Source of the DNA: Mytilus trossulus
Lineage: Eukaryota
Direction of reading: 5' to 3'
DNA: 64,000 nucleotides
Assembly: GCF_036588685.1 (NCBI RefSeq)
Contig: NC_086375.1
Location: 23,560,001 to 23,624,000 of the forward strand
In this document: positions 1 to 37,009 of the stretch, piece by piece
How the letters are laid out: every line of letters starts with the position of its first letter
How positions within the stretch are numbered: position 1 is the first letter of the stretch
The notes under the pieces: model-generated
Seen by the model: only the letters and a program-made list of their open reading frames with translations
Told to the model about the DNA's origin: nothing
The model's database searches: none
Program-made: the position numbers and the translations under genes

Positions 1-744
1 TAATCCTCCTTTGATTTTTTAACTGGGTTTTTAGATTTAATTGGTAACCAAGAATTTAACCATCCTTACAGTTTTTTGTTTGAGTTTTAATTTAACTTTT
101 TATCTTCTTAGTCTGGTGAGGATTGATTTTATTTGTAAACTAAATATTTAACATAAGCAGAAAAAAATTGTTTAATACATTTAAGGAAGAATTAACAGAA
201 AATATTTGTGGAGCCTTTTTATTACTATTTTTGTTTTGCACCATTGTATTGTCAAAGCATTACTTCTTAAACTTTTCATCTTTAAAATTACAACAAAGAC
301 CATGTAGAAATATTCAGGAAAGTGATGGAACTTCAACTTGAATATGATGGTATTTCCCAAGTTTTACCAGAGCAAGACATGTATTAGGTTCAGTCTTTGT
401 CCGTTTTAAGATCACTCTGGTAAAAGATCTAAATAGAATTGATCACTTTCAAGAATATTTGTGTATGCTAGAAGTCTTGACTGAAATATGACTTATTTTG
501 TCATCAGTATTCTGATTTTGCATGAAGGATGTTAACACTGAAAATTAATGTGGCATGCCTTAGAACCTAACAGCACATGTTAATACAGACACTTTGCATT
601 GGTCGGTACACTGCATGATGTTTTATTGTGTTTTGTTTTTTTTATAAAATTGGAAAACAATGATGTACTGTTTGTATAAACTTATTTATCTTCATTTTGG
701 AATAGAACATTATGAATAATAATTACTCATCTATTTTCTAACAG

Positions 745-8605: not shown

Positions 8606-11600
8606 TTATTTATTGGTAAAAAGAAAGGTTTCTTCATTTCTAGTTATTTTATTCCATTCATTAATCTCGCCATTCATAACTATAAAAACTCCATGTTTAT
8701 CCAAAACCTGTAATGCTCCAATAGCAAAGCCCACATTAAAATCAGCATCACTGTCTTTAAAGGCCTCGGGTAGAAAAGCTCCAGTCAGAACCACAGTTTT
8801 ATCTAGCTGATGTTCTGCCAAGAATGCTCCTGTTTCTATCATTGTGTCTGTTCCATGGGTGATCAAAATTTTCTTGTGTATTGACTGTTTACAAGCATTC
8901 AGTATTTTCTGCCTGAAATAGTGACAATGATTAAATTTAGACATATTTAAGGCTTTCAAATTTGCAAACAATTCACACATTGTTATAAAAGTTAATATGC
9001 AAATGATATGCATGACTTATTTTATACCCCGGCTTTAAAAAAGGGGGGGGTATACTGTTTTACCTCTGTCCGTCCGTCAGTCCGTACGTCCGTCCGTCAG
9101 TCAGTCCGTCCCATGAATATTTTTTGTTGCATTTTTCTCAGGAACTACAATACAAGGATTTCTGAAATTTGGTTTCAGGGTTTATCTAAGTGAGCTATAC
9201 CGTGTGATGCATTTTCAGATTGATCACACTTGACAACTTCCTGTTTACCGAACACTTGTATGATTTTACACATGATAGCCAAGTTGAAAATTTTCGTCAC
9301 ATTTTTCTCAGGTACTACAATACAAGGATTTCTGAAATTTGGTTTCAGGATTTATATAAGTCAGCTTTACCATGTGATGCGTTTTCAGATTCATCACTCG
9401 ACAACTTCCTGTTTATGGAACACTTGTATGATTTTACACATGATAGCCAAGTTGAAAATTTTCATCACATTTTTCTCAGGAACTACAATACAAGGATTTC
9501 TGAAATTTGGTTTCAGGATTTATATAAATCAGCAATACCGTGCGATGCGTTTTCAGATTCATCACTCGACAACTTCCTGTTTACGGAACACTTGCATATT
9601 TTTACACTATTAATATTATCCACTTGCGGCGGGAGTATCATCAGTGAGCAGTAGCTCGCAGTTTCACTTGTTTCATATGTACCTATCATACATTAACCTT
9701 GATAATAAGGAAGTATTTGCCACTGGACATTCAGGCAACACTATACCCTACATTGACCTAGGTCTTTAGAAAGTATTTGCAACTGGACATTCAGGAAACA
9801 ATAAATCAATATACCCTACATTGACCTGAAAATAAACATGAAGAATTTGGCAATGAACATTAAAAAAATACTGACCAATTTACCTGAAAATGCATGAATT
9901 ATTTGCCACCTGACAATAAGGGGTCAATAAATCAATTACCTCACACTAACTTGAAGTATACATAAAGTATCTGACACCAAACTTTCGGGAAACAATGAAC
10001 AATCTACCCCTGTTGATTATAATATGCATGAAGTATTGGTCACTGGATATCAGGGAAATAATCAATCAATTTACCCACATCGATTCAAATATGTATGAAT
10101 AGTTTGCCACTGGACATTAGGGAAACAATAAACGGATAATACACATCAATTCAAATATGCATGAAGTATTTGTCATTGGACATTTGGGAAGCAATAAACC
10201 AATCTACCACCACTGACTTAAATATGCATGAAGTATTTGCAACTAGACATTAGGGTGACTATAAATGTATATATCTACCCTACAACTACTTGAGTATGGT
10301 AATGCATGAAGTATTTTCCACTGGACTGGAAGTAAAACTAGAGGCTCTAAAGAGCCTGTGTCGCTCACCTTGGTCTATGTGAATATTAAACAAAGGAAGC
10401 AGATGGATTCATGACAAAATTGTGTTTTGGTGATGGTGATATGTTTGTACATCTTACTTTACTGAACATTCTTGCTGCTTACAATTATCACTATCTATAA
10501 TGAACTTGGCCCAGCCGTTTCTGTGGAAAATGTTACCGGTAGTAAAAATTTACAAATTTTATGAAAATTGTTTAAAATTGACTATAAAGGACAATAACTC
10601 CTTAGGGGGTCAATTGACCATTTTGGTCATGTTGACTTATTTGTAAATCTTACTTTGCTGAACATTATTGCTGTTTACAGTTTATCTCTATCTATAATAA
10701 TATTCAAGATAATAACCAAAAACAGCAAAATTTCCTTAAAATTACCAATTCAGGAACAGCAACCCAACAACGGGTTCTCTGATTCATCTGAAAATTTCCG
10801 TGTCAGATTTGCTCTAAATGCTTTGGTTTTTGAGTTATAAGCCAAAAACTGTGTTTAACCTCTATGTTCTATTTTTAGCCATGGCGGCCATCTTGGTTGG
10901 TCTGGGGGGTCACGCCACACATTTTTTAAACAAGATACCCCAAAGATGATTGTAGCCAAGTTTGGATTAATTTGGCCCAGCAGTTTCAGAGAAGAAGAAT
11001 TTTGTAAAAGATATATAAAATTTATGAAAAATGGTTAAAAATTGACTTAAAAGGGCAATAACTCCTAAAGGGGTCAACTGACCATTTTAGTCGTGTTGAC
11101 TTATTTGTAAATCTAACTTTGCTGAACATAATTGCTGTTTACAGTTTATCTCTATCTATAATAATATTCAAGATAATAACCAAAAACAGCAAAATTTCCT
11201 TAAAATTACCAATTCAGGAACAGCAACCCAACAACGGGTTGTCCGATTCATCTGAAAATTTCAGGGCAGATAGATCTTGACCTTACAACCAATTTTACTT
11301 CACGTCAGATTTGCTCTGAATGCTTTGGTTTTTGAATTATAAGTAAAAAACTGCGTTTTACCCTTATGTTCTATTTTTAGCCATGGCGGCCATCTTGGTT
11401 TGTTTGGCGGGTCACGCCACACATTTTATAAACTAAATACCCCAATGATGATTGTGGCCAAGTTTGGTTTAATTTGGCCCAGCAGTTTCAGAGGAGAAGA
11501 TTTTTGTTAAAGATATATAAAATTCACGAAAAATGGTTAAAAATTGACTTAAAAGGGCAATAACTCCTAAAGGGGTCAACTGACCATTTTGGTCATGTTG

Positions 11601-13483
11601 ACTTATTTGTAGATCTTACTTTGCTTAACATTATTGCTGTTTACAGTTTATCTCTATCTATAATAGTATTCAAGATAATAACCAAAAACAGTAAAATTTC
11701 CCTAAAATTACCAATTCAGTGGCAGCAACCCAACAACGGGTTGTCCGATTCATCTGAAAATTTCAGGGCAGATAGATCTTGACCTGATAAACAAGTTTAA
11801 ACCTGTCAGATTTGCTCTAAATGCTTTGGTTTTTGAGTGATCAGCCAAAAACTGCATTTTACCCCTATGTTCTATTTTTAGCCATGGCGGCCATCTTGGT
11901 TTGTTTGGCGGGTCACGCCACACATTTTTTAAACTAGATACCCCAATGATGATTGTGGCCAAGTTTGGTTTAATTTGGCCCAGTAGTTTCAGAGGAGAAG
12001 ATTTTTGTAAAAGTTAACGACGACGGACGACGACGACGACGGACGACGGACGCCAAGTGATGAGAAAAGCTCACTTGGCCCTTCGGGCCAGGTGAGCTAA
12101 AAAATAGGACACAATAAATAAATCTACCCCACAGCAGTATTTGCTAATTGCCATCTAGAAAACAATACATTAAGCAAACCAACTCTTATCTATACATGCT
12201 TGAAGTATTTGAAACATGACATTAGGAAAACAATAAATGAATTTTCAACAATACAGAACAATAAAACAAAACAATACTGACGAATTGTGTTCAATAATTG
12301 ACCCAAAATCACAACGTACATAATCCATTTACCTTTCCTCTTGGTTTATATCTTGACTGTCTTTCCTGCAAGCTGTTATAAATTGCACAGAATATGGAAC
12401 TTTTGCTCTGGAAATGATTTTCTGAGCTGCTGGTTCTTCTATTTCAAAGGCATATCCTAAATGTGTTCTAGGATACCTTTTATCAATGGTACCTGAAACA
12501 GATTGGGATCAATTACAACTTATGATATCTATAATTTAGTGTGTATAAAGAATACTGAGGAAACACCGGCTTGTTTGTAATATCTTATGGAACATTGTCA
12601 TAAAAAGCCACTGGCCATTGAAATTATAAAACAAATAACTAAATAGATATAGGAAGATGTGGTGTGTGTGCCACTGAGACAACTCGCCATCCAAATAACA
12701 ATTTAAAAAACGTAAAACATTATAGGTCAGTGTACGGCCTTCAACACGGAGCATTGGCTCACACCGAACAACAAGCTTTAAAGGGCCCCAAAACTACTAG
12801 TGTAAAACCATTCAAACGGGAAACCAATCTATATAATCTATATAAAAAAACGAGGAACGAGAAAGCTTGCTACACACGTTCATTTCTCTATTTGCAATGG
12901 CTAATAAATAGTCCAGGCTTGTGTTTATACAATCATTGTGCTATTTTCTATACTCTTTGGTCGGGTAGTAGAACCTTTGACACATTCCCTTTTCCATTCT
13001 TACATGAGAACTTGTGGTGCGATATCCAAGGAGACCACTCCGGTCCAGTTCTTCGTATTCAGTATTGTAAACTTGGCCATATTGAGGTAACTTGGTTGTA
13101 CTAATAAAAAAAATGTTTTTAATAAAAAAAAATAGCCACTCCTGACCCATTTGTTGACAAATAACTGCTTAATTATCTCTAACCAGTGACAAATCACATA
13201 CGCTCGTTCAGTAAATGCTTTCGGATCAAAGGGTACAAAAAGAGAACAGCTGAGTTCATGCAGCACGTCTGAACAGGCATGTCTTGTGCAGAACCCCGTT
13301 AAAAATAAGAGACAGGAAAGGGGAAATAATACGGAAGACAAAAACTCTAGTAAAAACGTAGATTACGTATAATACAAGTCGGTTGCTATTCCAAACTCAA
13401 AGCAACGGAGCTACACTTAAAATAGCTGTTTACTTACCTCCTGTTTGTATAATAAGAATTCCGTTTCTGTTCTCGCACATCAT
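8606..13483 (-). CDS. Short-chain (single-domain, 170 aa) L-asparaginase-family protein
   Basis: complement(join(8606-8912,12333-12492,13438-13483)) = 513 nt, GT-AG introns, phases consistent. MMCENRNGILIIQTGGTIDKRYPRTHLGYAFEIEEPAAQKII...CRKDSQDINQEERQKIL...ILITHGTDTMIETG...KTVVLTGAFLPEAFKDSDADFNVGFAIG...GVFIVMNG... Carries both class 1 asparaginase signatures (TGGTI, HGTDT). Confidence 0.92.
9022..9672 (+). mobile_element. HINE-like element, family C, with 168-bp core repeats
   Basis: TTATACCCC..GCTTT..GGGGGGTATAC 5' hairpin, (GTCC)n microsatellite, ~3 cores of 168 bp, 3' end GCGGCGGG.GTATCATCAGTGAGCAGTAGCTCGCAGTTTCACTTGTT. Other copies at 55915-56343, 58686-59082 and 59787-60759. Confidence 0.8.
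9690..10326 (+). repeat. Degenerate ~60-bp tandem array
   Basis: About 10 copies of TGCATGAAGTATTTGCCACTGGACATTAGGGAAACAATAAATCAATCTACCC-like units. The array resumes at ~12105-12240 beyond an inserted element; a single related copy is at ~44475-44512. Confidence 0.75.
10336..12102 (-). mobile_element. HINE-like element, family D, with ~500-bp core repeats
   Basis: Ends AACTAGAGGCTCTAAAGAGCCTGTGTCGCTCACC and GAAAAGCTCACTTGGCCCTTCGGGCCAGGTGAGCTAAAA, (GAC)n microsatellite, ~3 cores of ~500 bp. Same family as 50776-53052 in the opposite orientation. Confidence 0.85.
12645..12865 (+). repeat. Dispersed repeat beginning AGAAGATGTGGTATGATTGCCAATGAGACAACT
   Basis: Related copies at ~23540, ~30928, ~41403, ~45170 and, inverted, ~57125-57310. 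Origin not determined. Confidence 0.65.
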
Positions 13484-21640: not shown

Positions 21641-24483
21641 TATATAACATAGCTAAACTCATTCTGTATCAATTTTTTCCAAAGTGCATGGCCACTAGAT
21701 AAAAAGGTAGAAAAAGTAATTCCCTTTCAACATAAAGATGTGGATGGCACTTTACATCAAAGCTCCTAAGTAACTTGTACAGGTTAAGTCATGGTACTAA
21801 AATTAAAAGTGTAAACTTTCAAAGCCAGCAGTCTAAATGTTCACCGTCTGTGCCATATGATTGCATCTAGAATGTTAGAAATTATTAAGTATGTACTATT
21901 TCAGGTTATTGTTGAGCCTGCTACTTTGTCGCAGATACTCAACATAGTGATATTGATTCTGCAGTGTCTTGGCGGTGTTAACTACCTTCTTAAAAGCTTT
22001 ATACCTTAGAATGTGGAAGAAATGGATGCTTCATACTTTGTATTTCGATGCCTTATTTTACAAAGTTTCCTTCTGTCACATGTTCATTGTCCTTGACCTT
22101 TTTTTCATTGTTCAGTGGCTACTAGAAAAGAGATTTTTTGTAATGTTATTTTCTCTCTTATTATGATTTAGTATGTTTGGTGTATGAAAAGGTTGTAAGG
22201 TGCACATTTCCAACTGGAAGGTGTTATCTGACCTTGACCTCATTTTCATTGTTCAATTGTTTAAGGTAAGATTTTATGTTTTGGTCTGTTTTTCTTAAAC
22301 TGTATGCTATAGGTCTTCTATATTTGGTGTATGGAATGATTGCAAGGTATCGTCTCACCTTGACCTCATTTTGGTGGTTTATTGGTCAATGTTCATTGTT
22401 TGTTTCTTATATACTATTATAAGCAACAGGTTAAGAATATTGAAATAAAGTTAATGCATATGTTGTGTACAAGTTATCATTTTGTACAAATTATAATTTG
22501 TATTTTGACTTAGTACAAATTGTTATCTGTACAAAATCTTCCTGTACACATCATAATTTGTACAAAATCAGGCTAAATTTCACTTATAACTTGTACAATA
22601 TTTTACATGATATAATCTTTCAAATAAAATGATAAAAAATATCAATTACGAATCATTATGAAACACACTGATAACTGTATATACAAAACTATAACAACAA
22701 TACTTCTATTTGTTGGAGCAGGTGGGCAAACATTGACCTCAAATTACACAATAAATACTGCATTTTTCATTTGGACTTCGAGTTTTTAAAAAAGAAAAGA
22801 TAAAGTTGTTAATCAGGAATTTGTGTAACAGACATAGAAGAGTCATCAATAGATTCTAGTTGGTTTCTGCTTAAAAAAGGGGGGGCGATAGATACCAAAG
22901 GATCAGTCAAACTCATAGATCGATAACACTCCTGATAAATTACCAACTGTTGTCACTCCCCATCTGATAGCCAAGACTTCCTTCTTGTCCTGGCACTGTA
23001 TAAGCCAAGCAATATGTGGAATTTTAACGTGAAGTTTAATAAAACTATATTATACTCTAACTAACTGACCAAAAATGTCTGTCCTTCTATTGAGCTCAAA
23101 CTAGCCAACGTATGGCATGTGGCTGTTGTCTGCTCTACGGTCGGGTGGTTGTCGCTTTGACATATTCACCATTTCCTTTCTCAATTTTATTTTAGGGTTT
23201 ATGATATGTATATAATCTGTTGGAAATTACTATATTATACATTTGCAGACATAATCAGAGAATATGCACAACAGACTGGTTGCTGTTAACAGTACACAAT
23301 CATTTTAAATTAACATATTTTGCCAAAAAAGCATAATGTCAAATTAGCCCGGGAAATAAAGATTTGTCAAAAATAGACCCGGGATTTCAGGATTGTACCG
23401 ATCCCATATCTATCTTGTCTATTCTTTGAAAAAAAGAACCTATCATGCACTTTTTATTATGGTTTGATCTAGTTCTCAGATATTATAAACAATAGGTCAA
23501 TTATTATATTTAGTGTATGGAACAAACAATGTTGTACATATAAAAAAGAAGATGTGGTATGATTGCCAATGCCGGAGACAACTGCATACAAGAGACAAGA
23601 CAACAAAACTTTAGGTCACCGTACGGCCTTCAACAATGACCCATGTCCGCCTGACTGTTTTTATATTACTTTGGCCTTAATTTCATGGCTCATTGGTCAA
23701 TGTTGATTTTGTGGTCGGATCTGACCTTGATAATGTTAAGTTAATGTATTAAAAACTTCACAATAAAGACGTTCACTGCATTTGTTTGTACCTGTTGTTC
23801 AGGGGTTGTTGTTTGTTGTGGTTCACTAGTGTTTATCCTTTCTTGTTTTTTTGTGTGTATGGATTAGTTTTGGTTTTTCTGTTTAAATTGTTTTACACTA
23901 GTCATTATGAGGCCCTTTATAGCTTGCTGTTCAGTGTTAGCCAATGATTTGTGTCGAGGCTGAACTTTGACTATTTCACTTTGGCCTATAATTGTTTACT
24001 TTTCATACATTGTGACTTGGATGGAGAGTTGTCTTGTTGGCATACCACTTCTACTTCTTTCTCTTTCAACATAAATTCAATCAGAAGTGAATTAGGCGAG
24101 ACATTTCAGAGTGTGCACTGTCTTGACAGAAAGGTTAGCATAGTAAAGTTTAGTTTCAGTATCGAGTTTACTTACACCACAACTAGTTTAGCTTAAAAGG
24201 AACATAGTCTTAGACATTTAAATTATTTGATTTGCATAAAGGTAACAACTGAAAGTCCTTCTGATGCATACTATTACTGTTTTCCTTTTTTGAATGATAT
24301 GTTATGTGTTCGGAAATATAGGATAAAAATGTCTTTATTAAATATATATGAAAAAGTGAATAAATATGTATTTTAATAATTAAGGATTCATATGCCTTCA
24401 TGAGGAAAATGAAATGTCCTTGAAATGATTAGACACTATGTCTAGGTACAATTCTATTCAAAATAATAAAATAAAAGAGCATT

Positions 24484-26190
24484 TCAAACTTTATAAACAA
24501 AACATGTCTGATATGATTTCTCATTTTTCTCACCACTTATATGACTTGACACTATCATCACTCCAGTTTCTCTGTTGATGTCTATAGCATAAGATTGTTT
24601 GATTCCATCAGCATCTGATAGTATTGTCTTACAGTTCTTACCATCGGGTGATACTACCACGATACTGTTGTTTCCATAAGATGCTATATAAACAAACCCA
24701 TACTTGTCTAATGTAAGTCCTTTTGGTTTGTCAATGTATTGATGCTGAAATGTCCATAGAGGTTCACCAGTGGCTTTGTAGCAGCAGACTGCATTTTCTC
24801 TGAAATTGGTACCATAGATATTTCCTTGGAATAATGCAACACGAAGAAGTCCTTCCATTCCTTCTAAGATTGTATGAGACATGTCACTCAGATTCACTGT
24901 AGTACACTGTCCGCCACTACTAATGACTAATATTTTACCATCACTTGCTACTCCAAGACATGCATGAGAAAGTTTAATTGATTGAATAATTTTACTTCTA
25001 TTTACATCCACCAGGACTGTCTGGTTTGCTGGTCCTAATGAGACAGCCACTGTATTATTCATGACAAGGCAACCATCACATGGAAACTCTGTGAATGTTA
25101 CTACTTTTCTGATAAAAATGCCATCATTACTGAACAACAGTAGTTGGTTACTGTTGTTATCAAGTACTATAAAATTCCCATCAGGTAATATAAGACAGGC
25201 AGATATATATAAAGACTTTATATCTTTTGAAATTGTCAGTCTTGTCAACAAGGATGGTTTTATTTGTTCCACTCCAGGACCTTTTGGAATCAAGTGCTGT
25301 GCTTGATCTTTTCTTCCAGCCTTTATTTTTAGAGTTGAAGTGGTGGTATTGATATTGATAATTCCAAATAAATTGACATCTTGTAAAAATGATTGAAGAG
25401 CAGATGAAAGGTTGACCTCTAAATTTTTTTCAATGAAATGGTCTCCACTTTCTAAATCTTCTATATATTTTGTGGTTTGTGATGTAATTTTCTCGATCTC
25501 TCTTAGAGCAATAAACCTTTGTAGCTCTGTAGTATATCGTGTCGTTTCAGAAAACTGGCTCTGTATTTGGTTTATCTGACTGGCTCGCTGTTCCATTTGT
25601 TGCACGAGATTGGCCATGTTTGATTTAAGCTTGGAGTATTTAGACTCTAAATCATTAAGTAAGTCTTGCTCTAATTTGTCTAAGTTATCATCAATCGATT
25701 TCCTCATATACCGTATTTTCTCGATGGCTTTTGTGTTCTGAGTATTGGAGGTAGTGATCCTGGTTTGCAGATACTTTATGGCTGTATCTATGTTTTCCTT
25801 CACAATCTTTAAATCTTTTTCAAAAAGTTGCACTGAGGCAGATGATTTGACTTGCTGAAGGATATCTGACAAAGGTTTCATTTCTTGACACATATTGTGT
25901 TTATCAGTGACACACTGGACACAGCATGGACAGGCATGGAAAGAACAGTAAAGTTCAAACTTCTTCTTGTGGTCTCGGCACTGGCTACTTATTTTCTGCA
26001 TGAATGTAGGTAACTTTTGGTAATCATCAGCTGACATGGTTTTATGGTTCTTAGACAGATGTGACTTGCTGTGAGGTTTTTCACAGTCTCCACAAAATAA
26101 AACCTCACATTCTGTGCACCAAGTGACTGCTGAATTGGAGATTCCATTGTCATTGCAAATTGTACAAAGTTGTTTGACTGATGAGGCCAT
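24484..26190 (-). CDS. RING-less TRIM-like protein A: two B-boxes, coiled coil, C-terminal NHL-like beta-propeller (568 aa)
   Basis: Single coding exon. B-box1 CTIC...WCTECEVLFCGDCEKPH...H; B-box2 CRDH...LYCSFHACPCCVQCVTDKH; helical middle; NHL-like blades (PKGLTLDKYGFVYIASYGNNSIVVVSPDG). Acceptor just before 26208; inferred upstream 5' exon ending at 28529. Confidence 0.92.
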   Translation of the reverse strand: MASSVKQLCTICNDNGISNSAVTWCTECEVLFCGDCEKPHSKSHLSKNHKTMSADDYQKLPTFMQKISSQCRDHKKKFELYCSFHACPCCVQCVTDKHNMCQEMKPLSDILQQVKSSASVQLFEKDLKIVKENIDTAIKYLQTRITTSNTQNTKAIEKIRYMRKSIDDNLDKLEQDLLNDLESKYSKLKSNMANLVQQMEQRASQINQIQSQFSETTRYTTELQRFIALREIEKITSQTTKYIEDLESGDHFIEKNLEVNLSSALQSFLQDVNLFGIININTTTSTLKIKAGRKDQAQHLIPKGPGVEQIKPSLLTRLTISKDIKSLYISACLILPDGNFIVLDNNSNQLLLFSNDGIFIRKVVTFTEFPCDGCLVMNNTVAVSLGPANQTVLVDVNRSKIIQSIKLSHACLGVASDGKILVISSGGQCTTVNLSDMSHTILEGMEGLLRVALFQGNIYGTNFRENAVCCYKATGEPLWTFQHQYIDKPKGLTLDKYGFVYIASYGNNSIVVVSPDGKNCKTILSDADGIKQSYAIDINRETGVMIVSSHISGEKNEKSYQTCFVYKV

Positions 26191-26833
26191 TACTTTTTCT
26201 CTCTACATCTGAAATATATGGGGGAAAGCTCTCTATAAATATGAATGAGTAATATAACAAATAATTTGCCGAAAAATATTACTGTAGTAAGTAATCAGTA
26301 TTATGAATAGATTCTACAAGTCCCAATATCTCATGACAAAACATATGCTAAAGCTATATGTATTAGGAAACTGTAAAAAGAAAAAGAAAAGAAAAACAGG
26401 GATCAGCAAGACAAGATCTTCAAAAGTGCAGCTTTCCAAAATTATCAGTTGACTCCTTGAAGGAACTTAAATGACGACTTTTATCATTTTTGTTTTGTTT
26501 TTACGTACTATCTTGAAAACTATAATGAAAAGATAGATTTCTAAACTGCAAAGTTTTACATATCTACAAATAGATCAAATAGAAGAAATTGTTAATCCGC
26601 TCTCTGTAAGAATTAGTGAGAACTTTAGATTGGCAGAAAGACAAAATCTATTTGATTGAAGAGGTATGTCAACTTCTAATATGAGTTATTGTCCTTTAAG
26701 ATGGATTTTTATGACCCATCCCCATCTAGGGGGCATTATTTTTGTCGGTCTGTGCGTCCGTTTGTTTGTTCAGTCGTTCTTTTGTCTGACTGTCTGTCTG
26801 TCCCACTACATATTTAAGGTTTAGGTCAAGTTA

Positions 26834-27277
26834 GAATGAAATTCAAAACAGTGTGGCTGTGGCCATTTATTGACACATTAAATTCATCCATTGACTAGGA
26901 CAATTTAGGTTAACGTTTGTATGTAACGACCACTGCTCACTTTGCACTTTTAATAGACTCATAAACTATGGGGTCACCAAAGGTTCTCATTACCTAAATA
27001 AAGTAATTCAAAAAAATAATCAGAAATAACACGATGTTTTGATTGATATCAATTATATTAAATCAAAACTTAAAGATTATTCCTGATTAATTTTTCGAAT
27101 TATTTTATAATTAAAGGCGTTTAGAAGCCTTTGGTGACCCCACAGTTTAAATGTCTAATGTAGGTACGTCTTGAACAGTGGTCGTTACAGACAAAGGTTC
27201 ACGTAAATTGTCTCAGTCAATGGATGAATCTAATCTGTCAATCAATAGCCACAGCCACACTGTTTTGAATTTCATTC
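26834..27277. mobile_element. Fold-back MITE with TA target duplication, specific to copy 1
   Basis: TIR GAATGAAATTCAAAACAGTGTGGCTGTGGC, palindromic over nearly its whole length. The empty site GTCAAGTTAGTTTTTG in copy 2 (~34141) confirms the TA TSD. Confidence 0.88.
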
Positions 27278-28000
27278 TAGTTTTTGATGCAGTTTAAGTT
27301 CAATTAATTTGAAACTTAGTGCACACGCATATGCTATAACCTTTTGTATGCTTATGTTAAATTAGAGTTTTTATCCCAGTTTCACAGTCCGCTAAACATA
27401 GCAAATGAACGTGCTAGTGGGTGTTAAAGTGTTTTTTTGGGTTTTTTTTGGTCAGGGTAGTTTTTTAGTTTTTTATGAAATTGAAATCCAATCAACTTGA
27501 AACTTAGCACATTGTAGTTTTTTATGAAATTGAAATCCAATCAACTTGAAACTAAGCACATATGGTCATTATGATATGATCTTCACAATTTAAATGCCAT
27601 TTTAGAGTTTTGACCTCAATTTCACGGTCCACTAAGCATAGAGAATGGTAATGGGAGTTGGTCCTCTATGTACTATAAACACATTCTTGTTCCTTTTTAG
27701 TTTTGTTTTGGGAACCAAAAGGTATGCTTGCCTAAGAAAACTTCAAATAGCTTAACTAGATCTACAAATAGGTCATATCTGAAATTAATAGTTAACTTAA
27801 ATGATATTTTATTTATTTTTGCAAATTAAAAGCAGAGAGACCATGAACAACAAAAAATAATCAGTCAAACATCAACTTTATAGTCCACCAAGGTATTTAT
27901 AAGTTGCACCGAATGATCAAGTTGAGAAAAATTATAAGACTCTTAATTTCGAACCTTAAGTTCATTCTCGGAGTGACAAGAGAAATTAAAATATATACAA

Positions 28001-28272
28001 AACAAGAATGTGTCCTCAGTACACGAATGCCCCACTCACACTATCATTTTCCATGTTCAGTGGACCGTGAAATTGGGGTAAAAACTCTAATTTGGCATTA
28101 CAATTAGAAATATCATATCAAAGGGAACATGTGTACTAAGATTGAAGTCGATTGGACTTCAACTTCATCAAAAACTACCTTGACCAAAACATTAACCTGA
28201 AGCGGGGCAGACGGACAAACGGACGAACGAACGAACGGACGCACAGACCAGAAAACATAATGCCCCTCTACT
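28001..28272 (-). mobile_element. Intact HINE-like family B copy, specific to copy 1
   Basis: AACAAGAATGTGTCC...CCCCTCTACTATCGTAGGTGGGGTATAAAA; absent from the equivalent A-run of copy 2 (~34841). Confidence 0.85.
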
Positions 28273-31200
28273 ATCGTAGGTGGGGTATAAAAAGAGTGTA
28301 CTATCTCCTTGAAATTTAGGGACTGTGTCAGAATAATATATCATATAAACATGATAAAGTAAATTTTCCCTTTCTTGTGTTGGACATTTATTATGATTTT
28401 ACTTTCTGTTTTAAACATTCAAGGATTTCTTGCTTTATGTACTGATATACTATTGCCAGAGTTTAATGAAATTTTTATTTTAGTTAATTAAATAACTGTG
28501 CTATTGAACTATTTGAATCGATTCTTACCATGAACATTTTGGCGGAAAGAAATTTGAACAGGGAAGTAAAATGTCTAATATCTGGGACACTTCCGTATAT
28601 TATTGATTCAAATAGAACTTCTTATCCCAACAGTTAAATGTCTGTGTTTGATTATAAATTTGATACACTAATATTTTTTTTTTTATTTAAATGCGTGTGC
28701 TTTCATACTTACTTAAAAACACTCAACAATTTTTAAAGAATCTCCAATGTGTGTAATCACACAAATCTGATAAATATTGTTTTTGACATTCAATTAAAAC
28801 AACTTTCATATTTTAATTATTCATCAAACATCTTTAAAAAAATATCAATTTTGAATAAGTTTTAGTATAACGTAGTCAATAGTTATAAAAGATATCAGTA
28901 TTATAACTACGTACGCCAGACGCGTGTTTCTACCTTTTTAATGACAATACATGTAACCCATTAAGGCAGATGAAGAACTGCATGATTTAAATTATAGAAA
29001 CAAAACATTATTTGAATCTGGAATAATTTTGAATTCTGGAAATTGATAAGAAATTTATGATGAAAATAAACCAAATTAATGAGACACAGAGGGGAGGGGT
29101 AGTTAGTTTATACAGAAATAAAGCAAAGGAAATTTGAACCTAAGTCGTGCAAGAAGGGCTAAACCCCTAAAGATGGTTAGTTTTCATCATACATTTCTTT
29201 TTATTTTAACATAGATTAGAATTATTCCAAAATCAAATATTTGCTTTTTTAAAAGATCATATACTTCTTAAAAAAGAAACATGTTTGTACAAGATATTCC
29301 ATACAGAAATACTTGTAATAATTTTATTAAGACAAAAATATATTTTTTGGCACCTCCCCTAAAAATTAATAAAGCTTTGACCGCTTAAATAAACACTATT
29401 TGTATTTTTAGTCAACTTAGGTCAAAATATTTCACAATCTTCGTGTGTTTTTGGCATATTTAACCTTGGCCGCCATCCACTATCCAAATAAAGGCAACAG
29501 TAGTATAACGCTGTTCAAAACTCATAAATCCATGGACAAAAAACAAAATCGGGGTAACAAACTAAAACCGAGGGAAACGCATTAAATACAAGAGGAGAAC
29601 AACGACACAACACCGAAACAGACCAAGCATCACAGTTTTGATATTGACGAATTCTATATCGAAATTGGAATCTTTTGGTTACAATCATTTCGGATCATAG
29701 ATGGCGGCCAAAGTTATCTTAACGCTTTTAAGTCTGAAAATTGCAAAAAATCGACATATTTTGACAAAATGTCTAAAATGGGCTTCGTTTTCGTGGTTCA
29801 TTGGTCATTGTTCATAGTTTGTTTCTTATATACTATTATAAGCATCTGGTCAAGTATATTGAAATAAAATTAATGCATATGTTGTGTACAGGTTATTATT
29901 TTGTACAAATTATAATGTGTACAAAACAACTGTACAAATTATAATTTGCATTTTGACTTTGTACACATTGTAATCCAAAATATTCCTGTACACATTATAA
30001 TTTGTAAAAAATCAGGCTAAATTTCACTTATAACTTGTACAATATTTTACATGGTATAATCTTAAAAATCAAATGATAAAAAAAAACTACGAATCAATAT
30101 GAAAGACACTGATAACTGTATATACAAAACTATAATAACAATACTTGTATTTGTTGGAGCAGGTGAGCAAACATTGACCTCGAATTACACAATACATACT
30201 GCATTTTGCGTTTCAACCGCCTTTACATTTCTAAGAAAGAAAGAGAAAGTTGTTAATACGGAATTTGTGTAACAGACATAGAAGAGTCAAAATAGATTCT
30301 AGTTGGTTTCTGCTTAAAAAGGAGAGATGAAAGATACCAAAGGAACAGTCAAACTCATAGATCGATAACACTCCTGATAAATTACCAACTATTGTCACTC
30401 CACATCTGATAGCTTTCCTACTTGTCCTTGCACTAGTACTGTATAAGCCAATCAATATGTGGAATTTTAACGTGAAGTATAATAAAACTATATTATACTC
30501 CAAGTAACTGACAAAAAATGTCTGTCCTTCTATTGAGCTCAAACTAGCCAACGTATGACCAGTCTTTTAGGGATGATATATAATCTGTTTGAAATTACTA
30601 GATTATACATTTGTAGTAATAAATCAGAGAATATACACAACAGACTGACTGACTGGTTGCTAGCTTTTTAACAGTACACAATCATTTTAAATTAACATAT
30701 TTTGCCAAAAAGGCATACTGTCTTATAATGCCCGGGAAATAAAGATTTGTCAAAACTAGAACCGGGATTTCAGGATTGTACCGATCCCATATCTATCGTG
30801 TCTATTCTTTGAAAAAAAGAAGAACCTATCATGCACTTTTTGATTTGGTTTGATCTAGATCTCAGATATTATAAACAATAGGTCAATTATTGTATTTAGT
30901 GTATAGAACAAACAAAGTTGTACAAATAAAAAAGAAGATGTGGTATGATTGCCTATGCCGGAGACTTCTGTGTACAAGAGACCAAAATGACACAGAACTT
31001 AACAACCGTACGGCCTTCAACAATGAGCCATGTCTGCCTGGCTGTGATTATATTACATTGGCCTCAATTTCATGGCTCATTGCTCAATGTTGATTTTGTG
31101 GTTGGATGTCAGGCACTGCAAGCAACAGGACCACTATATTTGGGGAATATAATGATTATAGGGTGTAATGTCTGTCTGGCTTGGTTTATTTTACTCACTC

Positions 31201-31974
31201 GGCTCTGAACTTGATAATGTGAAAGTTTAAGTACTAGTAGTAAAACCTTCACATTAAAGACTTTCATCTGCATTTGTTTTCACCTGTTGTTCAGGAGTTG
31301 TCGGTTGTTGTGGTTCACAAGTGCTTATCCTTTCTTGTTTTTTGTGTATGGATTAGTCTTGGTTTTTCTGTTTGCATTGTTTTACACTAGTCTTTCTATG
31401 GCCCTTTAAAGCTTGCTGTTCAGTGTTAGCCAATGCTTTGTGTCGAGGCTGTACTCTGACTATTGTACTTTGACCTATAATTGTTTACTTTTCATACATT
31501 GTGACTTGGATGGAGATTTGTCTAATTTGCATACCACTTCTACTTATTTCTATTTCAACATAAATTCAGGCATAAGAAAATTAGGCGAGACATTTCAGAG
31601 TGAGCACTGTCTTGACAGGAAGGTTAACATAGTAAAGTTTAGTTTCAGTATCGAAAATATTTACACCACAACCAGTTTAGCTTAATACGAACATAGTCTC
31701 AGGCATTTAAATTATTTGATTTGCATTAAGGTAAAAACTGAAAGTCTTTTTGATGCATACTATTACTGTTTCCTTTTTTGAATAATATGTTATGTGTTCG
31801 GAAAAATAGGATAAAAATGTTTATAAATATAAAAATATATATGATAGTGAACAAATATGTATTTTAATAATTTAGGATTTATATGCCTTAATAAGGAAAA
31901 TGAAATGTCCTTGAAATGATTAAACACTATGTCTAGATACAATTCTATTCAAAATAATAAAATAAAAGAGCATT

Positions 31975-33684
31975 TCAAACTTTATAAACAAAACATGTCT
32001 GATATGATTTCTCATTTTTCTCACCACTTATATGACTTGACACTATCATCACTCCAGTTTCTCTGTTGATGTCTATAGCATAAGGTTGTTTGATTCCATC
32101 AGCCTCTGATAGTATTGTCTTACAGATCTTACCATCTGGTGATACTACTACGATACTGTTGTTTCCAGAAGAAGCTATATAAACAAAACCATTTTTGTCT
32201 AATGCAAGTCCTCGTGGGCTGGCAATGTCTTGATGCTGAAATGTCCACAGAGGTTCTCCTGTAACTTTGTAGCAGCAGACTTCATTTCCACTGACATTGG
32301 TACCATAGATATTTCCTTGGAATAATGAAATACGAAACACTCCTCTCATTCCTACTAAGATTGTATGAGACATGTCACTCAGATTCACTGTAGTACACCG
32401 GCTGCCACTATCACTGATTACCAAAGTTTTACCATCACTTGCTACTCCATAACAGTTGTGAGAAAGTTTAATTGATTGGATAATTTTATTTCTATTTACA
32501 TCTACCAGTACTGTCTGTTTCTCTCGTCCTAATGTAACAGCCACTGTATTATTCTTGACAAGGCAACCATCATATGGACTCTCTGAGAATGTTACTACTT
32601 TTCTGATAAAAATGCCATCATTACTGAACAACAGTAGTTGGCAATTGTTCCTATCAATTATCATAAATTTACCATCAGGTAATATAAGACAGGCAATCAT
32701 ATTTAAAGACTTTATATCTTTTGGAATTGTCAGTCTTGTCAACAAAGATAGTTTTATTTGTTCCACTCCAGGAACTTTTGGAACCAAGTGCTGGGCTTGA
32801 TCTTTTCTTCCAGCCTTTATTTTAAGAGTAGAGAGGGTGGTATTGATATTGATATTTCCAAATGAATTGACATCTTGTAAAATTGATTGTAGAGCAGATG
32901 AAAGGTTGACCTCTAGATTCTTTTCTATGAAATGGTCTCCACTTTCTAAATCTTCTATGTATTTTGTCGTTTGTGATGTAATTTTCTCAATCTCTCTTAG
33001 ACCAATAAACCTTTGTAGCTCTGTAGTATATTGTGTCGTTTCGGAAAACTGGCTCTGCATTTGGTTTATCTGACTGGCTCGCTGTTCCATTTGTTGTATG
33101 ATACTGGCCATGTTTGATTTAAGCTGTGAATGTTTAGACTCTAAATCATTAAGTAAGTCTTGCTCTAATTTGTCTAAGTAATCATCAATCGATTTCCTCA
33201 TATACCGTATTTTCTCAATGGCTTTGGTGTTCTGAGTATCGGTGGTGGTGATCCTGGTTTGCAGATACTTTATGGCTGTATCTATGTTTTCCTTCACAAT
33301 CTTTAAATCTTTTTCAAAAAGTTGCACTGAGGCAGATGATTTGACTTGCTGAAGTATATCTGACAAAGGTTTCATTTCTTGACACATCTTGTGTTTATCA
33401 GTGACACACTGAACACAGCATGGACAGGCATGGAAAGAACAGTAAAGTTCAATCTTCTTCTTGTGGTCTTGACACTGGCTACTTATTTCTTGCATGAATT
33501 TAGGTAACTTTTGGTAATCATCAGCTGACATGGTTTTGTGGTTTTTAGACAGATGTGACTTGCTGTGAGGTTTTTCACAGTCTGCACAAAATAAAACCTC
33601 GCATTCTGTGCACCAGATGACTGCTGAATTGGAGATTCCATCGTCATGGCAAATTGTACAAAGTTGTTTGACTGATGAGGCCAT
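31975..33684 (-). CDS. RING-less TRIM-like protein B, paralog of A (569 aa)
   Basis: Same architecture, about 87% identical to A by hand count. Acceptor just before 33703; inferred 5' exon ending at 35073. Confidence 0.92.
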   Translation of the reverse strand: MASSVKQLCTICHDDGISNSAVIWCTECEVLFCADCEKPHSKSHLSKNHKTMSADDYQKLPKFMQEISSQCQDHKKKIELYCSFHACPCCVQCVTDKHKMCQEMKPLSDILQQVKSSASVQLFEKDLKIVKENIDTAIKYLQTRITTTDTQNTKAIEKIRYMRKSIDDYLDKLEQDLLNDLESKHSQLKSNMASIIQQMEQRASQINQMQSQFSETTQYTTELQRFIGLREIEKITSQTTKYIEDLESGDHFIEKNLEVNLSSALQSILQDVNSFGNININTTLSTLKIKAGRKDQAQHLVPKVPGVEQIKLSLLTRLTIPKDIKSLNMIACLILPDGKFMIIDRNNCQLLLFSNDGIFIRKVVTFSESPYDGCLVKNNTVAVTLGREKQTVLVDVNRNKIIQSIKLSHNCYGVASDGKTLVISDSGSRCTTVNLSDMSHTILVGMRGVFRISLFQGNIYGTNVSGNEVCCYKVTGEPLWTFQHQDIASPRGLALDKNGFVYIASSGNNSIVVVSPDGKICKTILSEADGIKQPYAIDINRETGVMIVSSHISGEKNEKSYQTCFVYKV

Positions 33685-35804
33685 TACTTCTTTCTCTTTA
33701 CATCTAAAATATATGGATAAAAGCTCTCTAATATGAATATGCTGGGAGTGAATCGGTTATATAACAAATAGTTTGCCGAAAATTATTACTGTATTAAGAA
33801 ATCAGTATTATGAATAGATTCTTCATGTCCCAAAACCTATGCTATGGCTATATATTATAAGGAAACTGTAAAAAGAGAAAAAGAAAAAAAGGAATCAGCA
33901 AGACAAGATCTTCAAAAGTGCAGCTATCCAAAATTATCAGTTGACTCCTTAAAGGAATCCGTAATATCTATAAAACTATAATGAAAAGATAGATTTCTAA
34001 AATGCAAAATTGATCAATAAGTACTACATATCTAAAAATAGAAGAGGGCATTATTTTTGGTCGGTCTTTGTGTCCGTTCGTTTGTTCAGTCGCTCTTTCG
34101 TCTGGCTGTCTGTCTGTCCCACTGCAGATTTAAGTTTTTGGTCAAGTTAGTTTTTGATGTACTTAGTTTTTTTGAAGTCCAATTGATTTGAAACTTAGTT
34201 CACACATTGCTATAACCTTTCTTATGCTTATGTTAAATTAGAGTTTTGATCCCAGTTTCACGGTCCACTAAACATAGCAAATGAAAGTGCTAGTAGAGGC
34301 CACCAAAGTGTAAAGTTTTTGGTCAGGGTAGTTTTTCAATTTTTGATAAAATTGAAATCCAATCAATTTGAAACTTTGTACATATGGTCCCTATGATATG
34401 ATCTTCCCAATTTAAACGCAAGTTTCGAGTTTTGACCTTAATTTCACGGTCCACTGAACATAGATAATGGTAATGGGTCATCTATGTACTATGGACACAT
34501 TCTTGTTCCTTTTTAGTTTTGTTTTGGGAACAAAAGGTATGTTTGCATAAGAAAACTTCAAACAGCAAAAATTATCAGCTTTACCAGATCTACAAATAGG
34601 TCATATCTGAAATGATGGTTAACTTAAATGATATTTTATCCATTTTTGAAAATCAAAAGCATAGAGACCACGAACAACAAAAAATTATCAGTCACACATC
34701 TACTCTATGTATAATCTTGGAGAGTCCACCCAGGTATTAATGAAGTTGCACCGAATGATCAAGTTAAGAGACATTATAAGACTCTTAATTTCTAACCTGA
34801 AGTTCATTCTCGGAGTGACACTGAGAAATTAAAATATCTAGAAAAAAAGAGTGTAGTATCTTCTTTAAATTTTTGGACTGTGTCAGAATAATATATCAAA
34901 TAAAGTAAATTTTCCCTTTCTTGTGTTGAACATTTATTATGTTTTTACTTTCTGTTTTAAACATTCAAGGATTTCTTGTTTTATGTATTGATATACTACT
35001 GCCAGAGTTTAATAAAATTTTGATTTTGGTTAATTAAATAAATGTGCAATTGAATTATTTGAACATTCTTACCATGAACATGCTGACAGAAAGAAATTTG
35101 AACAGGGAAGTAAAATGTCCAATATCTGGGACGCTTACGTATATTATTGATTCAAATATGAATTCTTATCTCAACAGTTAAATGTCCTTGCATGAATATA
35201 GATTTTTACTTGTCATACTTACTTAAAAGCACACAACAATTTTTAAAAAGCACTCAACAATTTTTAAACATGTAAAGAATCTCCAATGTGTGTATTACAC
35301 AAATCTAATCAAAATACTGAAGTACTGAACATCGGATGACCGCAAGGTCTTGCGGATGGCCAAAACATAGCACTTGTCACAGAAAATAATTACACCTCTA
35401 TACCTGAAACTGAGGTTAATTTACAGAAAAATTTCATTTTTTTTTAAGAGACAAGTTCGTGCGTGAATGATAAATAATGACAGGAAATTCAACTTCGTAG
35501 TAATAACTATTGCATTGTAGTGATACAAATCAGTATACACTGGTTTGTTGTTATATATTATATTCATATAACAGTTAATGTATCTATAATTTTCATCCAT
35601 TTGTATATCATTATTTTCTACTTATGTAATAATAGTACAGTACAAGTGCATGGTGGAGAATAGTGAAGTACAAGTGCATGTATACTAATAATATCTTTAT
35701 TTAGAGAGAGCAGAGACATATATACATATATATGTCTCTGGAGAGAGTAACTCATTTGGATTACACCAATTTTCAATAAGGCTCTCTAAATAAGGCTCTG
35801 TATA

Positions 35805-36092
35805 GTGGCCGGTTAATTTCATTTCGCATTTTCGGATCGCCCTTCTTATTCTATAGGGCGAAAACGCGGAAGTCGAAAAAGAAAAAAACGCGAAGACGAA
35901 AACGCAAAAACGCGAAATATTTTTTTCTTTCCGATTTCGGTTTTTCGACTTCGCGTGTTCGCCTTTTCGCGTTTTCGACTTCGTGTTTTCGCCCTATAGA
36001 ATATGAAGGGTGGAAACGCGAAAACGCGAAATGGACAACGTTGCGAAAACGCGAAGTATTTTTTCTTTCCGATTTTGTGTGTTCGCGTTTTC
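35805..36092. repeat. CpG-rich fold-back fragment built of GCGAAAAC/GTTTTCGC motifs
   Basis: Arms CCCTTCTTATTCTATAGGGCGAAAAC / GTTTTCGCCCTATAGAATATGAAGGG. Lies in a ~1.1-kb stretch (~35320-36430) absent from copy 1. Confidence 0.65.
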
Positions 36093-36881
36093 AATGATTA
36101 TAAATATTATCAATGATTTTTTTACTTATATCTAATGACAACATTTTCATATTAATAATTTATGTTATAAACAAAAATATCTTTATCGGTATTCGTTGAA
36201 GAGATGTATTTATAACAATAAGGAATGCCATTTTGCACTCGTTAATATCCGCGTAGTTATCATTAATATAGATCGATTAAAAACCTAAAACGAATATTAC
36301 TTAATGGAAATCGAGGCGATAGCAAAACACCGAAATGTCCTCTCGGTCATCCGCTGTAAAATAAAAAAAACGAATATTACGTATTGGAAATCTAGGCGAT
36401 ACCGGAACGCTCACACGGTCATCCGTTTTTAAAATTATGTTTTTACTTTCATAACTTTTTTTTTATTAAACATCTTAAAAAAAAAAGGGAATTAGTTTTA
36501 GTATATTAACTTAGTAAACTTCCATGACAATACATGTAACTACTTGCATGATTTCAAAAATTAGAATCAGAAAAATATTTCAATCTGGAATAATTTTGAA
36601 TTCTGGGAAATCGCTAAGAAATGTATGATGACAACTAACTTTTTTATTTACTGTTTAAATTAACCATCCCCCCCTCTCATTAATTTTAATGAGAGGGGGG
36701 GTTAATTTAAACAGTAAATAAAAGCAAAAGTAACTTGAACCTAAATCGTGTAAGAAGGACTAAACCCATAAAGTTGGTTAGTTTTCGTCATATGTTTCTT
36801 TTCAGTTTAACATAGTTTAGAATTATTCCAGAATCAAAAATTAGCTTTTTTAAAAGTTCAATTACTTCTTTAAAAGGAAAC

Positions 36882-37009
36882 AAGAGGCGGATTTAGGGGG
36901 GGGGGGGGGGGTTGCTTATATAGGGAATCACTGAAGCGTGACTGGAGCGGGCCCCCTCTTATGTCAGTCAGTGGGCCCCCACTTATGAAAATTTCTGGAT
37001 CCGCCACTG
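36882..37009. mobile_element. Small hAT-like MITE, specific to copy 2
   Basis: Ends (A)AGAGGCGGAT ... ATCCGCCACTG; GAAAC repeated on both sides; empty site AAGAAACATGTTTG in copy 1 (~29275). Confidence 0.8.

Follow-up and report, generated by a model that had tools for sequence, protein, structure and literature searches.

Tandem RING-less B-box/propeller genes of Mytilus trossulus and the concentration of paralog divergence on one predicted propeller face

Introduction

What does a mussel gain from neighboring copies of a gene that share one part of their protein almost unchanged and differ radically in another? The question is raised by two tandem genes (A and B) of Mytilus trossulus, contained in the 64-kb stretch of contig NC_086375.1 that was analyzed as a whole (hereafter, the window). 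A sequence-only reading of this DNA had proposed a constant scaffold carrying a diversifying ligand-binding face, analogous to the variable loops of TRIM5. Farmed bivalves have no adaptive immunity. The nearest known systems are the TRIM-NHL proteins (class C-VII, Marin subfamily C: Brat, Wech, Mei-P26, Thin/Abba, and TRIM2/3/71; Brat and Wech are classed as TRIM-like within this subfamily), which share with the mussel genes two B-boxes, a coiled coil, and a six-bladed NHL-type propeller. For mussels, an expansion of B-box genes has already been published, as has presence/absence variation; 1,133 B-box and 1,410 six-bladed-propeller entries, enriched among dispensable genes, are tabulated for M. 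galloprovincialis (PMC7653742, Table S52), and the family described here very likely belongs to them. The accessible parts of PMC7653742 and PMC8382680 give domain counts only, containing no architecture-level family and no analysis of top-face variability or selection, and a search of the bivalve/Mytilus B-box and NHL literature, judged by title or abstract start, found no paper on a variable face.

Results

Locus and gene models

Both open reading frames were found on the minus strand where tandem RING-less paralogs had been proposed. They are 87% identical, are the only family copies detected by tblastn of the window, and lie in a sequence with zero Rfam matches. The features are as follows.

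24484–26190, minus strand: gene A coding sequence, an uninterrupted ORF of 568 aa with B-box1, B-box2, coiled coil, and NHL-type propeller, without RING
24487–25254, minus strand: gene A propeller (aa 313–568), placed by alignment to the structure model of B
25450–26166, minus strand: gene A B-box1 (aa 9–49), B-box2 (aa 71–101), and coiled coil (aa 107–247)
31975–33684, minus strand: gene B coding sequence, an uninterrupted ORF of 569 aa with the domain order of gene A
31978–32748, minus strand: gene B six-bladed propeller (aa 313–569) with hypervariable DA and BC (top) loops, from the structure model
32944–33660, minus strand: gene B B-box1, B-box2, and coiled coil (aa 9–247)
24447–24593, no strand: 147-bp run identical in A and B, covering the last 35 codons, the stop, and the proximal 3' UTR
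26209–28528, minus strand: predicted 5' UTR intron of gene A (GTAAG donor, CAG acceptor), with the upstream exon ending at 28529
33704–35072, minus strand: predicted 5' UTR intron of gene B, with the upstream exon ending at 35073
22366–36882, no strand: genes A and B duplicated in tandem, head to tail, along with flanks and upstream exon, at a period of ~7.4–7.5 kb (self-BLAST)

The two exon ends flanking the predicted 5' UTR intron of gene A are connected by the loose end of a paralog contig. Pfam detects no RING finger in A or B; among 96 aligned family members, Met1 is almost invariant and B-box1 begins at residue 9. An in-frame stop lies between the intron acceptor and the ATG of gene A, and the acceptor-to-ATG spacer is 18 nt long there and 19 nt long in gene B; no upstream coding exon could therefore be joined at that acceptor. 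Both B-box stretches score over the Pfam zf-B_box cut-off, with Cys/His ligands invariant or nearly so across the aligned members, and are followed in the structure model by a long helix (residues 107–247) predicted to form the coiled coil; profile comparison matches these regions to the B-box/coiled-coil regions of TRIM3 and TIF1-beta. The genes thus have the B-boxes and coiled coil of TRIM (RBCC) E3 ligases but lack their N-terminal RING.

Predicted fold of the C-terminal domain

The C-terminal domain of gene B is modeled as six blades of four strands, with pLDDT >90 in most 10-residue blocks; it is a propeller, and a B30.2/PRYSPRY domain is absent. Among solved structures it comes closest in fold to the NHL domains of Lin41/TRIM71, Thin, TRIM2/3, and Brat (Z ~28–30, rmsd 2.3–3.0 Å); the best NHL matches (Z ~30, rmsd 2.2–2.8 Å over ~250 residues) are tied with the NHL-derived design Pizza6. 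Pfam NHL exceeds its cut-off in B but not in A, and the mussel propeller is only 13–21% identical to solved NHL domains, its likeness to them being one of HMM and fold. The mussel genes differ further from TRIM-NHL proteins in the missing RING, in leaving no room for a filamin domain, and in their uninterrupted coding sequence. For the analyses below, the top loops were set solely from the model strands and the published definition (PMC4015489).

Divergence between genes A and B

The first 326 residues contain 28 differences, and the last 243 alignment columns contain 45 substitutions and one indel (Fisher p = 0.0006), in good agreement with the earlier hand counts of ~28 in the first ~326 and ~47 in the last ~243 residues; the ten propeller patches quoted there are all present in the alignment. 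The last ~35 residues and the proximal 3' UTR had been described as almost unchanged, and indeed A and B do not differ in the DNA of the last 35 codons and differ at 3 of 83 proximal 3' UTR bases, the 147-bp identical run being likely a recent gene-conversion tract. The same description of the strand cores holds for strands C and D (1/71 positions differ) but less so for A and B (13/66).

Nonsynonymous difference separates the propeller from the N-terminal part (p = 3e-5), whereas synonymous difference does not (p = 1.0), and dS is flat (0.143 vs 0.149), with no rise in the propeller. By structural class, differing positions amount to 27/74 in the top loops, 5/45 in the bottom loops, 14/137 in the strands, and 27/312 in the scaffold, the variable residues thus falling mainly on one face and not on all. 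BLOSUM-negative changes make up 16 of the 27 in the top loops as against 8 of the 27 in the scaffold, and the indel, together with several length variants, also sits in the top loops. Top-loop dN is 0.234, the local dS at the same codons is 0.088, the gene-wide dS 0.146, and the divergence of the downstream flank 0.114. The flat and locally low dS rules out gene conversion as the sole cause of the top-face excess.

Codon maximum likelihood for this pair gave ω of 0.27 for the scaffold, 0.34 for strands, 0.29–0.31 for bottom loops, and 1.61–1.65 for top loops, so that ω at the top loops is not well below 1. The top-loop excess over 1 is modest and rests on a single DNA pair (one-sided LRT p 0.021–0.026; bootstrap interval 0.98–2.6). 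The lower bound of this interval, like the indel and length variants, would suit drift (ω ~1) of exposed loops in copies that are young and redundant, with gene conversion from older paralogs widening the spread and no selection for new specificities. However, the equally exposed bottom loops stay at ω 0.3, and, since local top dS is not raised, conversion from distant donors cannot explain the difference between A and B.

Variability across the family

Among 98 family members, 26 of the 33 most variable sites are in top loops, in one register through all six blades, and aromatic residues occupy 19% of top-loop positions vs 2% of bottom-loop positions. When 13 close members are compared, heterozygosity reaches at least 0.7 at 14 of 75 top sites; 500 neutral simulations yielded a mean of 1.6 such sites (maximum 6) at dS 0.145 and 4.0 (maximum 11) at dS 0.2, although the mean top-face heterozygosity, 0.343, is within the neutral range if dS is 0.2. 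Recombination among paralogs is detected (PHI p = 0.008), giving mosaic paralogs. This recombination would also be in keeping with relaxed constraint, but a subset of sites lies beyond every neutral simulation. Gene conversion is present, yet it is not the cause of the A/B top-face excess because the local dS is not raised.

The residues found at variable sites include Y, F, W, R, N, and H, which would suit a repertoire of sequence-specific RNA binders (with host mRNAs or the RNA of viruses or transposons as targets), in which every paralog would gain and then keep a base-reading face as KRAB zinc-finger proteins do with their DNA-reading face. The nearest folds are themselves RNA-binding NHL domains, Brat and Mei-P26 read differing RNA motifs through non-conserved top residues (PMC9070667), and the diversify-then-hold pattern described below is compatible with such a role. 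In contrast to the electropositive tops of known RNA-binding TRIM-NHL proteins, the top loops here carry, by a crude count uncalibrated on Brat/TRIM71, a mean net charge of −2.9 (range −15 to +4); the charge is above zero in 22 of 98 members and is −2 in A and +2 in B, and no conserved basic ring was seen. We consider RNA reading unlikely.

In a distant family from clams, the top-face excess recurs: paralog divergence is 0.35 in top vs 0.15 in bottom loops in Ruditapes (n = 20), and 0.33 vs 0.13 in Mercenaria (n = 18). The excess is weaker than in the mussel, and across all 78 clam sequences the scaffold (0.44) nearly equals the top (0.46). A metagenome scan returned, from 290 pattern matches, one distant locus (L001, 19% identity), of use solely in bridging to the clam family. 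The A/B pair, the wider family, and the clams therefore agree with the proposed constant scaffold and diversifying top face.

Paralogs and presumed orthologs

Ten same-chromosome paralog pairs show a top divergence of 0.291 vs 0.096 elsewhere, about 3-fold, whereas 14 cross-species presumed ortholog pairs show 0.056 vs 0.051 (contrast in top-face excess, p = 0.001). Orthology was presumed from 90% clusters, not from synteny, and the pooled 14 pairs, from 37 listed, leave out P0037, P0120/P0165, and other partial or same-species pairs. That the ortholog result is an artefact of 90% clustering was rejected, as 9 of the 14 pairs have non-top divergence ≤0.06, where truncation is impossible, and give 18/648 differences in the top vs 148/4,293. 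The opposite clustering bias may inflate ratios among cluster representatives, leaving A vs B unaffected. One same-chromosome pair (P0011/P0124) is an exception, with 0/75 top differences. The 21 cross-species sister pairs between clusters (4 ratios <1, 13 ratios >2) mix orthologs and paralogs without synteny and were not used as a test.

The conserved bottom loops and the presumed ortholog pairs rule out that loops in general vary. It looks as if the face of a newly duplicated copy diversifies and is reshuffled through recombination before being held constant. Because presumed orthologs hold their top loops as tightly as the scaffold, drift under relaxed constraint appears improbable, the least probable reading here. 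The analogy with TRIM5, which predicts divergence of the face among orthologs, fails in this respect: the 14 presumed ortholog pairs show no excess there, which argues against a running arms race, and an excess in paralogs but not in presumed orthologs fits a specificity library better than a TRIM5-style single-gene arms race.

A face kept across species is also what stable host ligands would predict, were the copies neofunctionalized adaptors for host proteins (in stress, shell, byssus, or development) with no pathogen link. In line with this, four public runs that were not chosen for infection and were guessed to be RNA each yield 93–339 assembled contigs aligning to gene B; the contigs, which gave 1,127 variant rows, indicate many related sequences but not expression levels. 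However, the enrichment among dispensable genes, the fast birth and loss of copies, the species-specific sub-clades, and the mosaicism would be unusual for housekeeping adaptors, and this explanation seems distinctly unlikely to us.

Discussion

We favor, with a probability of roughly 0.55, the reading that genes A and B are members of a large, fast-duplicating family of RING-less B-box/coiled-coil/propeller proteins constituting a library of intracellular binders, each copy likely with a different, probably foreign, target. Other TRIMs dimerize through the coiled coil and cluster on repetitive targets with the help of B-boxes. By analogy, the coiled coil of the mussel proteins would dimerize, the B-boxes would let the protein cluster on a repetitive target, and ligand binding would fall to the top face, as it does in Brat and Mei-P26. 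Once a gene has been duplicated, selection together with gene conversion may provide the fresh copy with a face of its own, and purifying selection would then hold that face. A protein without RING might act by sequestering its target or via a RING-bearing partner, and the targets would most likely be proteins of intracellular pathogens. An innate or antiviral role, suggested earlier, is possible on the basis of analogy and of oyster transcriptome papers on TRIMs in general.

A comparable division of labor was, as Thomas is said to have described in 2006, found in nematode and plant F-box and MATH-BTB adaptors, which reportedly combine a constant adaptor part with a diversifying substrate-binding part in birth-and-death clusters, foreign proteins being the proposed targets. 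The mussel family is built from other domains, with no Cullin-binding module or ligase partner identified. With fish finTRIMs and primate TRIM5alpha (PMC2657112), it has in common a clustered, expanding TRIM family, a conserved N-terminal part, C-terminal-domain loops under positive selection, and recombination; the selection on top loops is indicated by ω ~1.6 vs ~0.3 elsewhere in one pair (p ~0.02–0.03) and by a protein-level excess over neutral simulation. However, the ligand domain is a predicted NHL propeller instead of B30.2/PRYSPRY, RING is absent, and the face is kept in presumed orthologs. From TRIM-NHL proteins, the family is also set apart by its many paralogs per genome and its hypervariable top face, which by the crude charge count would be mostly non-electropositive.

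More speculatively, and in our judgment doubtful though worth stating, bivalves may possess a germline-encoded, recombining repertoire of hundreds of antibody-like intracellular NHL-propeller sensors, in which the twelve top loops would act as paratope, blades would be shuffled by gene conversion, and copies would vary between individuals, and which would underlie the recurring "TRIM2/3/71-like" resistance signal in oyster and mussel. Transcripts named TRIM turn up repeatedly in studies of how farmed bivalves resist Perkinsus or mortality driven by herpesvirus, which offer no mechanism; TRIMs recur among oyster disease-resistance transcripts, identified by annotation name only.

Among the largest domain expansions of the mussel genome is one annotated as TRIM2/TRIM71-like E3 ligases, yet the family is RING-less, and the concentration of its variation on one predicted binding face turns a vague annotation into a testable receptor library with ~30 named specificity positions. 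If the favored reading, a library of intracellular binders, is true, the NHL propeller, otherwise known for conserved RNA reading in development, would have found a second use as a diversifying recognition scaffold.

Gene structure and surroundings of the tandem copies

Two long, uninterrupted reading frames (A and B), the only two copies in the AT-rich animal DNA of the window, encode proteins 87% identical to each other, and lie within a head-to-tail duplication that, by self-comparison of the window, has a period of ~7.4–7.5 kb and includes the flanks.

24484–26190, minus strand: coding sequence of gene A, 568 aa
31975–33684, minus strand: coding sequence of gene B, 569 aa
28524–28528, minus strand: conserved GTAAG donor, gene A
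35068–35072, minus strand: conserved GTAAG donor, gene B
28529–28537 joined to 26203–26208, minus strand: predicted uORF, gene A, stop TAG
35073–35081 joined to 33698–33703, minus strand: predicted uORF, gene B, stop TAA

In the Pfam search, two B-boxes are detected together with an NHL repeat that is weak and above cut-off in B only; neither protein has a RING match. A single 5' UTR intron per gene is predicted because both the donor and an acceptor, which precedes the ATG by 18 nt in A and by 19 nt in B, are conserved; the predicted exon ends are joined in the loose end of a paralog's contig. Across this junction both genes keep a predicted uORF (Met-Phe-Met-Met-stop) ending 12–13 nt before the main ATG, with a possible role in translational control. 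Among 7,997 scored candidates 222 are homologs, and 119 of the 120 listed matches are named Mytilus proteins, which identifies the source as a Mytilus mussel.

Elsewhere in the window are an exon of an asparaginase-like gene (8609–9016, minus strand; PF00710, E 1e-16), an inverted pair of ~86% alike copies with ~500-bp tandem units (10334–12103 and 50776–53053), probably a mobile element or satellite, and a dispersed element of 168-bp tandem units (9022–9676, 55912–56347, 58681–58951, 59783–60761), which starts beside GTCC microsatellites and yields spurious ORFs. A Ser/Pro/Arg-rich open frame (723–1079, plus strand), without a Pfam match, is probably exonic, from a neighbouring gene.

Divergence concentrated on one propeller face

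The AlphaFold2 model of B, built from an alignment of both window proteins with 94 of the 120 listed hits (partial forms and isoforms left out), consists of a long helix (107–247) and a six-bladed propeller (313–569; pLDDT >90 in most blocks), with B-box1 and the linker poorly modelled. Its best fold matches are the NHL domains of Thin, TRIM2/3, Lin41/TRIM71 and Brat, and the NHL-derived Pizza6 (Z 28–30, rmsd 2.2–3.0 Å, 13–21% identity). The top of NHL propellers, made by loops b–c and d–a, is the ligand-binding face (PMC4015489).

The sequence-only reading had proposed a constant scaffold carrying a diversifying propeller face, and the comparison of A with B bears this out. The N-terminal part differs at 28 of 326 residues and the last 243 at 45 plus one indel, with dN rising from 0.039 to 0.104 at level dS (0.143 vs 0.149), so that synonymous divergence is not raised in the propeller; the downstream flank diverges by 0.114. 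With residues classed solely from the strands of the predicted model, changes cluster on the top loops (27/74, against 5/45 in the bottom loops, p=0.003; strands 14/137, scaffold 27/312) rather than on all faces. In a codon model with a common synonymous rate, omega for this pair is 0.27 in the scaffold, 0.34 in the strands, 0.29–0.31 in the bottom loops and 1.61–1.65 in the top loops, the last exceeding 1 at one-sided p 0.021–0.026 under three frequency models. Direct counting gives a top-loop dN of 0.234 (local dS 0.088, gene-wide 0.146) and a ratio of 1.6 (bootstrap 0.98–2.6). The difference between top and bottom faces is strong; the excess above neutrality is real but modest, since a single pair underlies the figure. 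An identical 147-bp run at the 3' end suggests recent conversion.

Variation among paralogs, presumed orthologs and clams

Ten same-chromosome pairs differ at 211/724 top and 474/4,935 other residues; the ratio is 2.2–6.1 in nine, and one very recent duplicate has zero top differences. Fourteen cross-species pairs, drawn inside 90% clusters with orthology assumed rather than based on synteny, differ at 56/1,003 and 344/6,758, respectively (p=0.001), including six californianus/coruscus pairs (23/430 and 167/2,949); a partial M. edulis record near-identical to A (P0044) has 0/33 top differences. The lack of a top-face excess in presumed orthologs indicates that the top loops are not intrinsically loose; the top face appears to change after duplication and then to be held.

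In 13 close members (85–90% identical to B), diversity per site averages 0.34 in top loops, 0.10 in bottom loops and 0.09 in the scaffold. Heterozygosity is at least 0.7 at 14/75 top sites, vs maxima of 6 (dS 0.145) and 11 (dS 0.2) in 500 neutral simulations that ignore recombination and take dS over from the A/B pair; mean top diversity falls inside their neutral range at dS 0.2. Relaxed drift is, to us, the least probable explanation considered. Across 98 members, heterozygosity is 0.8 or more at 33 sites, of which 26 lie in top loops, 5 at adjoining strand ends and 2 in the scaffold, in one common register across all six blades. The PHI permutation test indicates recombination without (p=0.008) and with (p=0.0004) the top sites, and a member's nearest neighbour switches between blades. 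Aromatic residues make up 19% of variable top sites vs 2% of bottom loops, and by net charge the top face is mostly non-basic.

A family from venerid clams that shares this architecture (124 matches, 120 listed, 78 aligned) was reached via a distant metagenome locus and is homologous to the mussel family over the full length (20% identity, probability 99.7). With classes taken from a separate predicted clam model, top loops exceed bottom loops in 20 Ruditapes (0.35 vs 0.15, p ~3e-6) and 18 Mercenaria paralogs (0.33 vs 0.13, p ~2e-6); relative to the scaffold, the top-loop excess is below the mussel level and almost gone over all 78. The metagenome contig (L001) carries two divergently oriented, uninterrupted B-box/coiled-coil/propeller-like frames (1–1557, minus; 2938–4623, plus), whose closest named relatives are Ruditapes proteins (25% identity). 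Some clam members (P0287, P0288, P0291; 744–769 aa) have PF18738 as an additional domain. Two further records (P0143, P0292; 1,141 and 1,080 aa) resemble tandem copies that have been fused. A profile search gives 727 clusters at 50% identity (E up to 1e-30); Atlas look-alikes are chiefly B-box/NHL clusters from molluscs, and clusters from molluscs and echinoderms that carry a RING rank lower.

Discussion

The feature is real and is a variant of known TRIM themes, similar to TRIM-NHL proteins in build and to finTRIMs, the closest working model (PMC2657112), in evolution; it falls outside canonical TRIM E3 ligases because the RING present there is absent (TRIM classification, PMC3503706; NHL specificity, PMC9070667). 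Bivalves show expansion of a B-box orthogroup (PMC8382680), whereas the TRIM count in Aplysia is 22 (PMC9334734). Oysters that resist mortality syndrome or tolerate Perkinsus show prominent TRIMs, for which the studies leave open how they act (PMC6971885, PMC9892467). Our search, with most subscription journals outside it, found no literature on how the top face of B-box/NHL proteins diversifies in bivalves; Additional file 1 of PMC7653742 may cover the topic, and the passages of PMC13093298 searched hold nothing relevant.

Most likely, with a probability of roughly 0.55, each paralog would form in the cell a dimer with a private propeller top face, clustering on its matching target through the B-boxes. 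The dimer, expected from TRIM family knowledge, would display two propellers; without a RING, the target would be sequestered or a RING-bearing partner used. F-box and KRAB zinc-finger families offer analogies. That the paralogs instead read RNA seems unlikely, and that they are adaptors for host proteins is slightly less likely still. Domain entries for the B-box (1,133) and the six-bladed propeller (1,410) are over-represented among dispensable genes of M. galloprovincialis (PMC7653742, Table S52), and because of this enrichment, the turnover, the aromatic-rich variable sites and the mostly non-basic face, our best guess is that the targets of such dimers are foreign proteins. Duplication, selection and conversion would generate new faces in the family, of which the useful ones would be retained.
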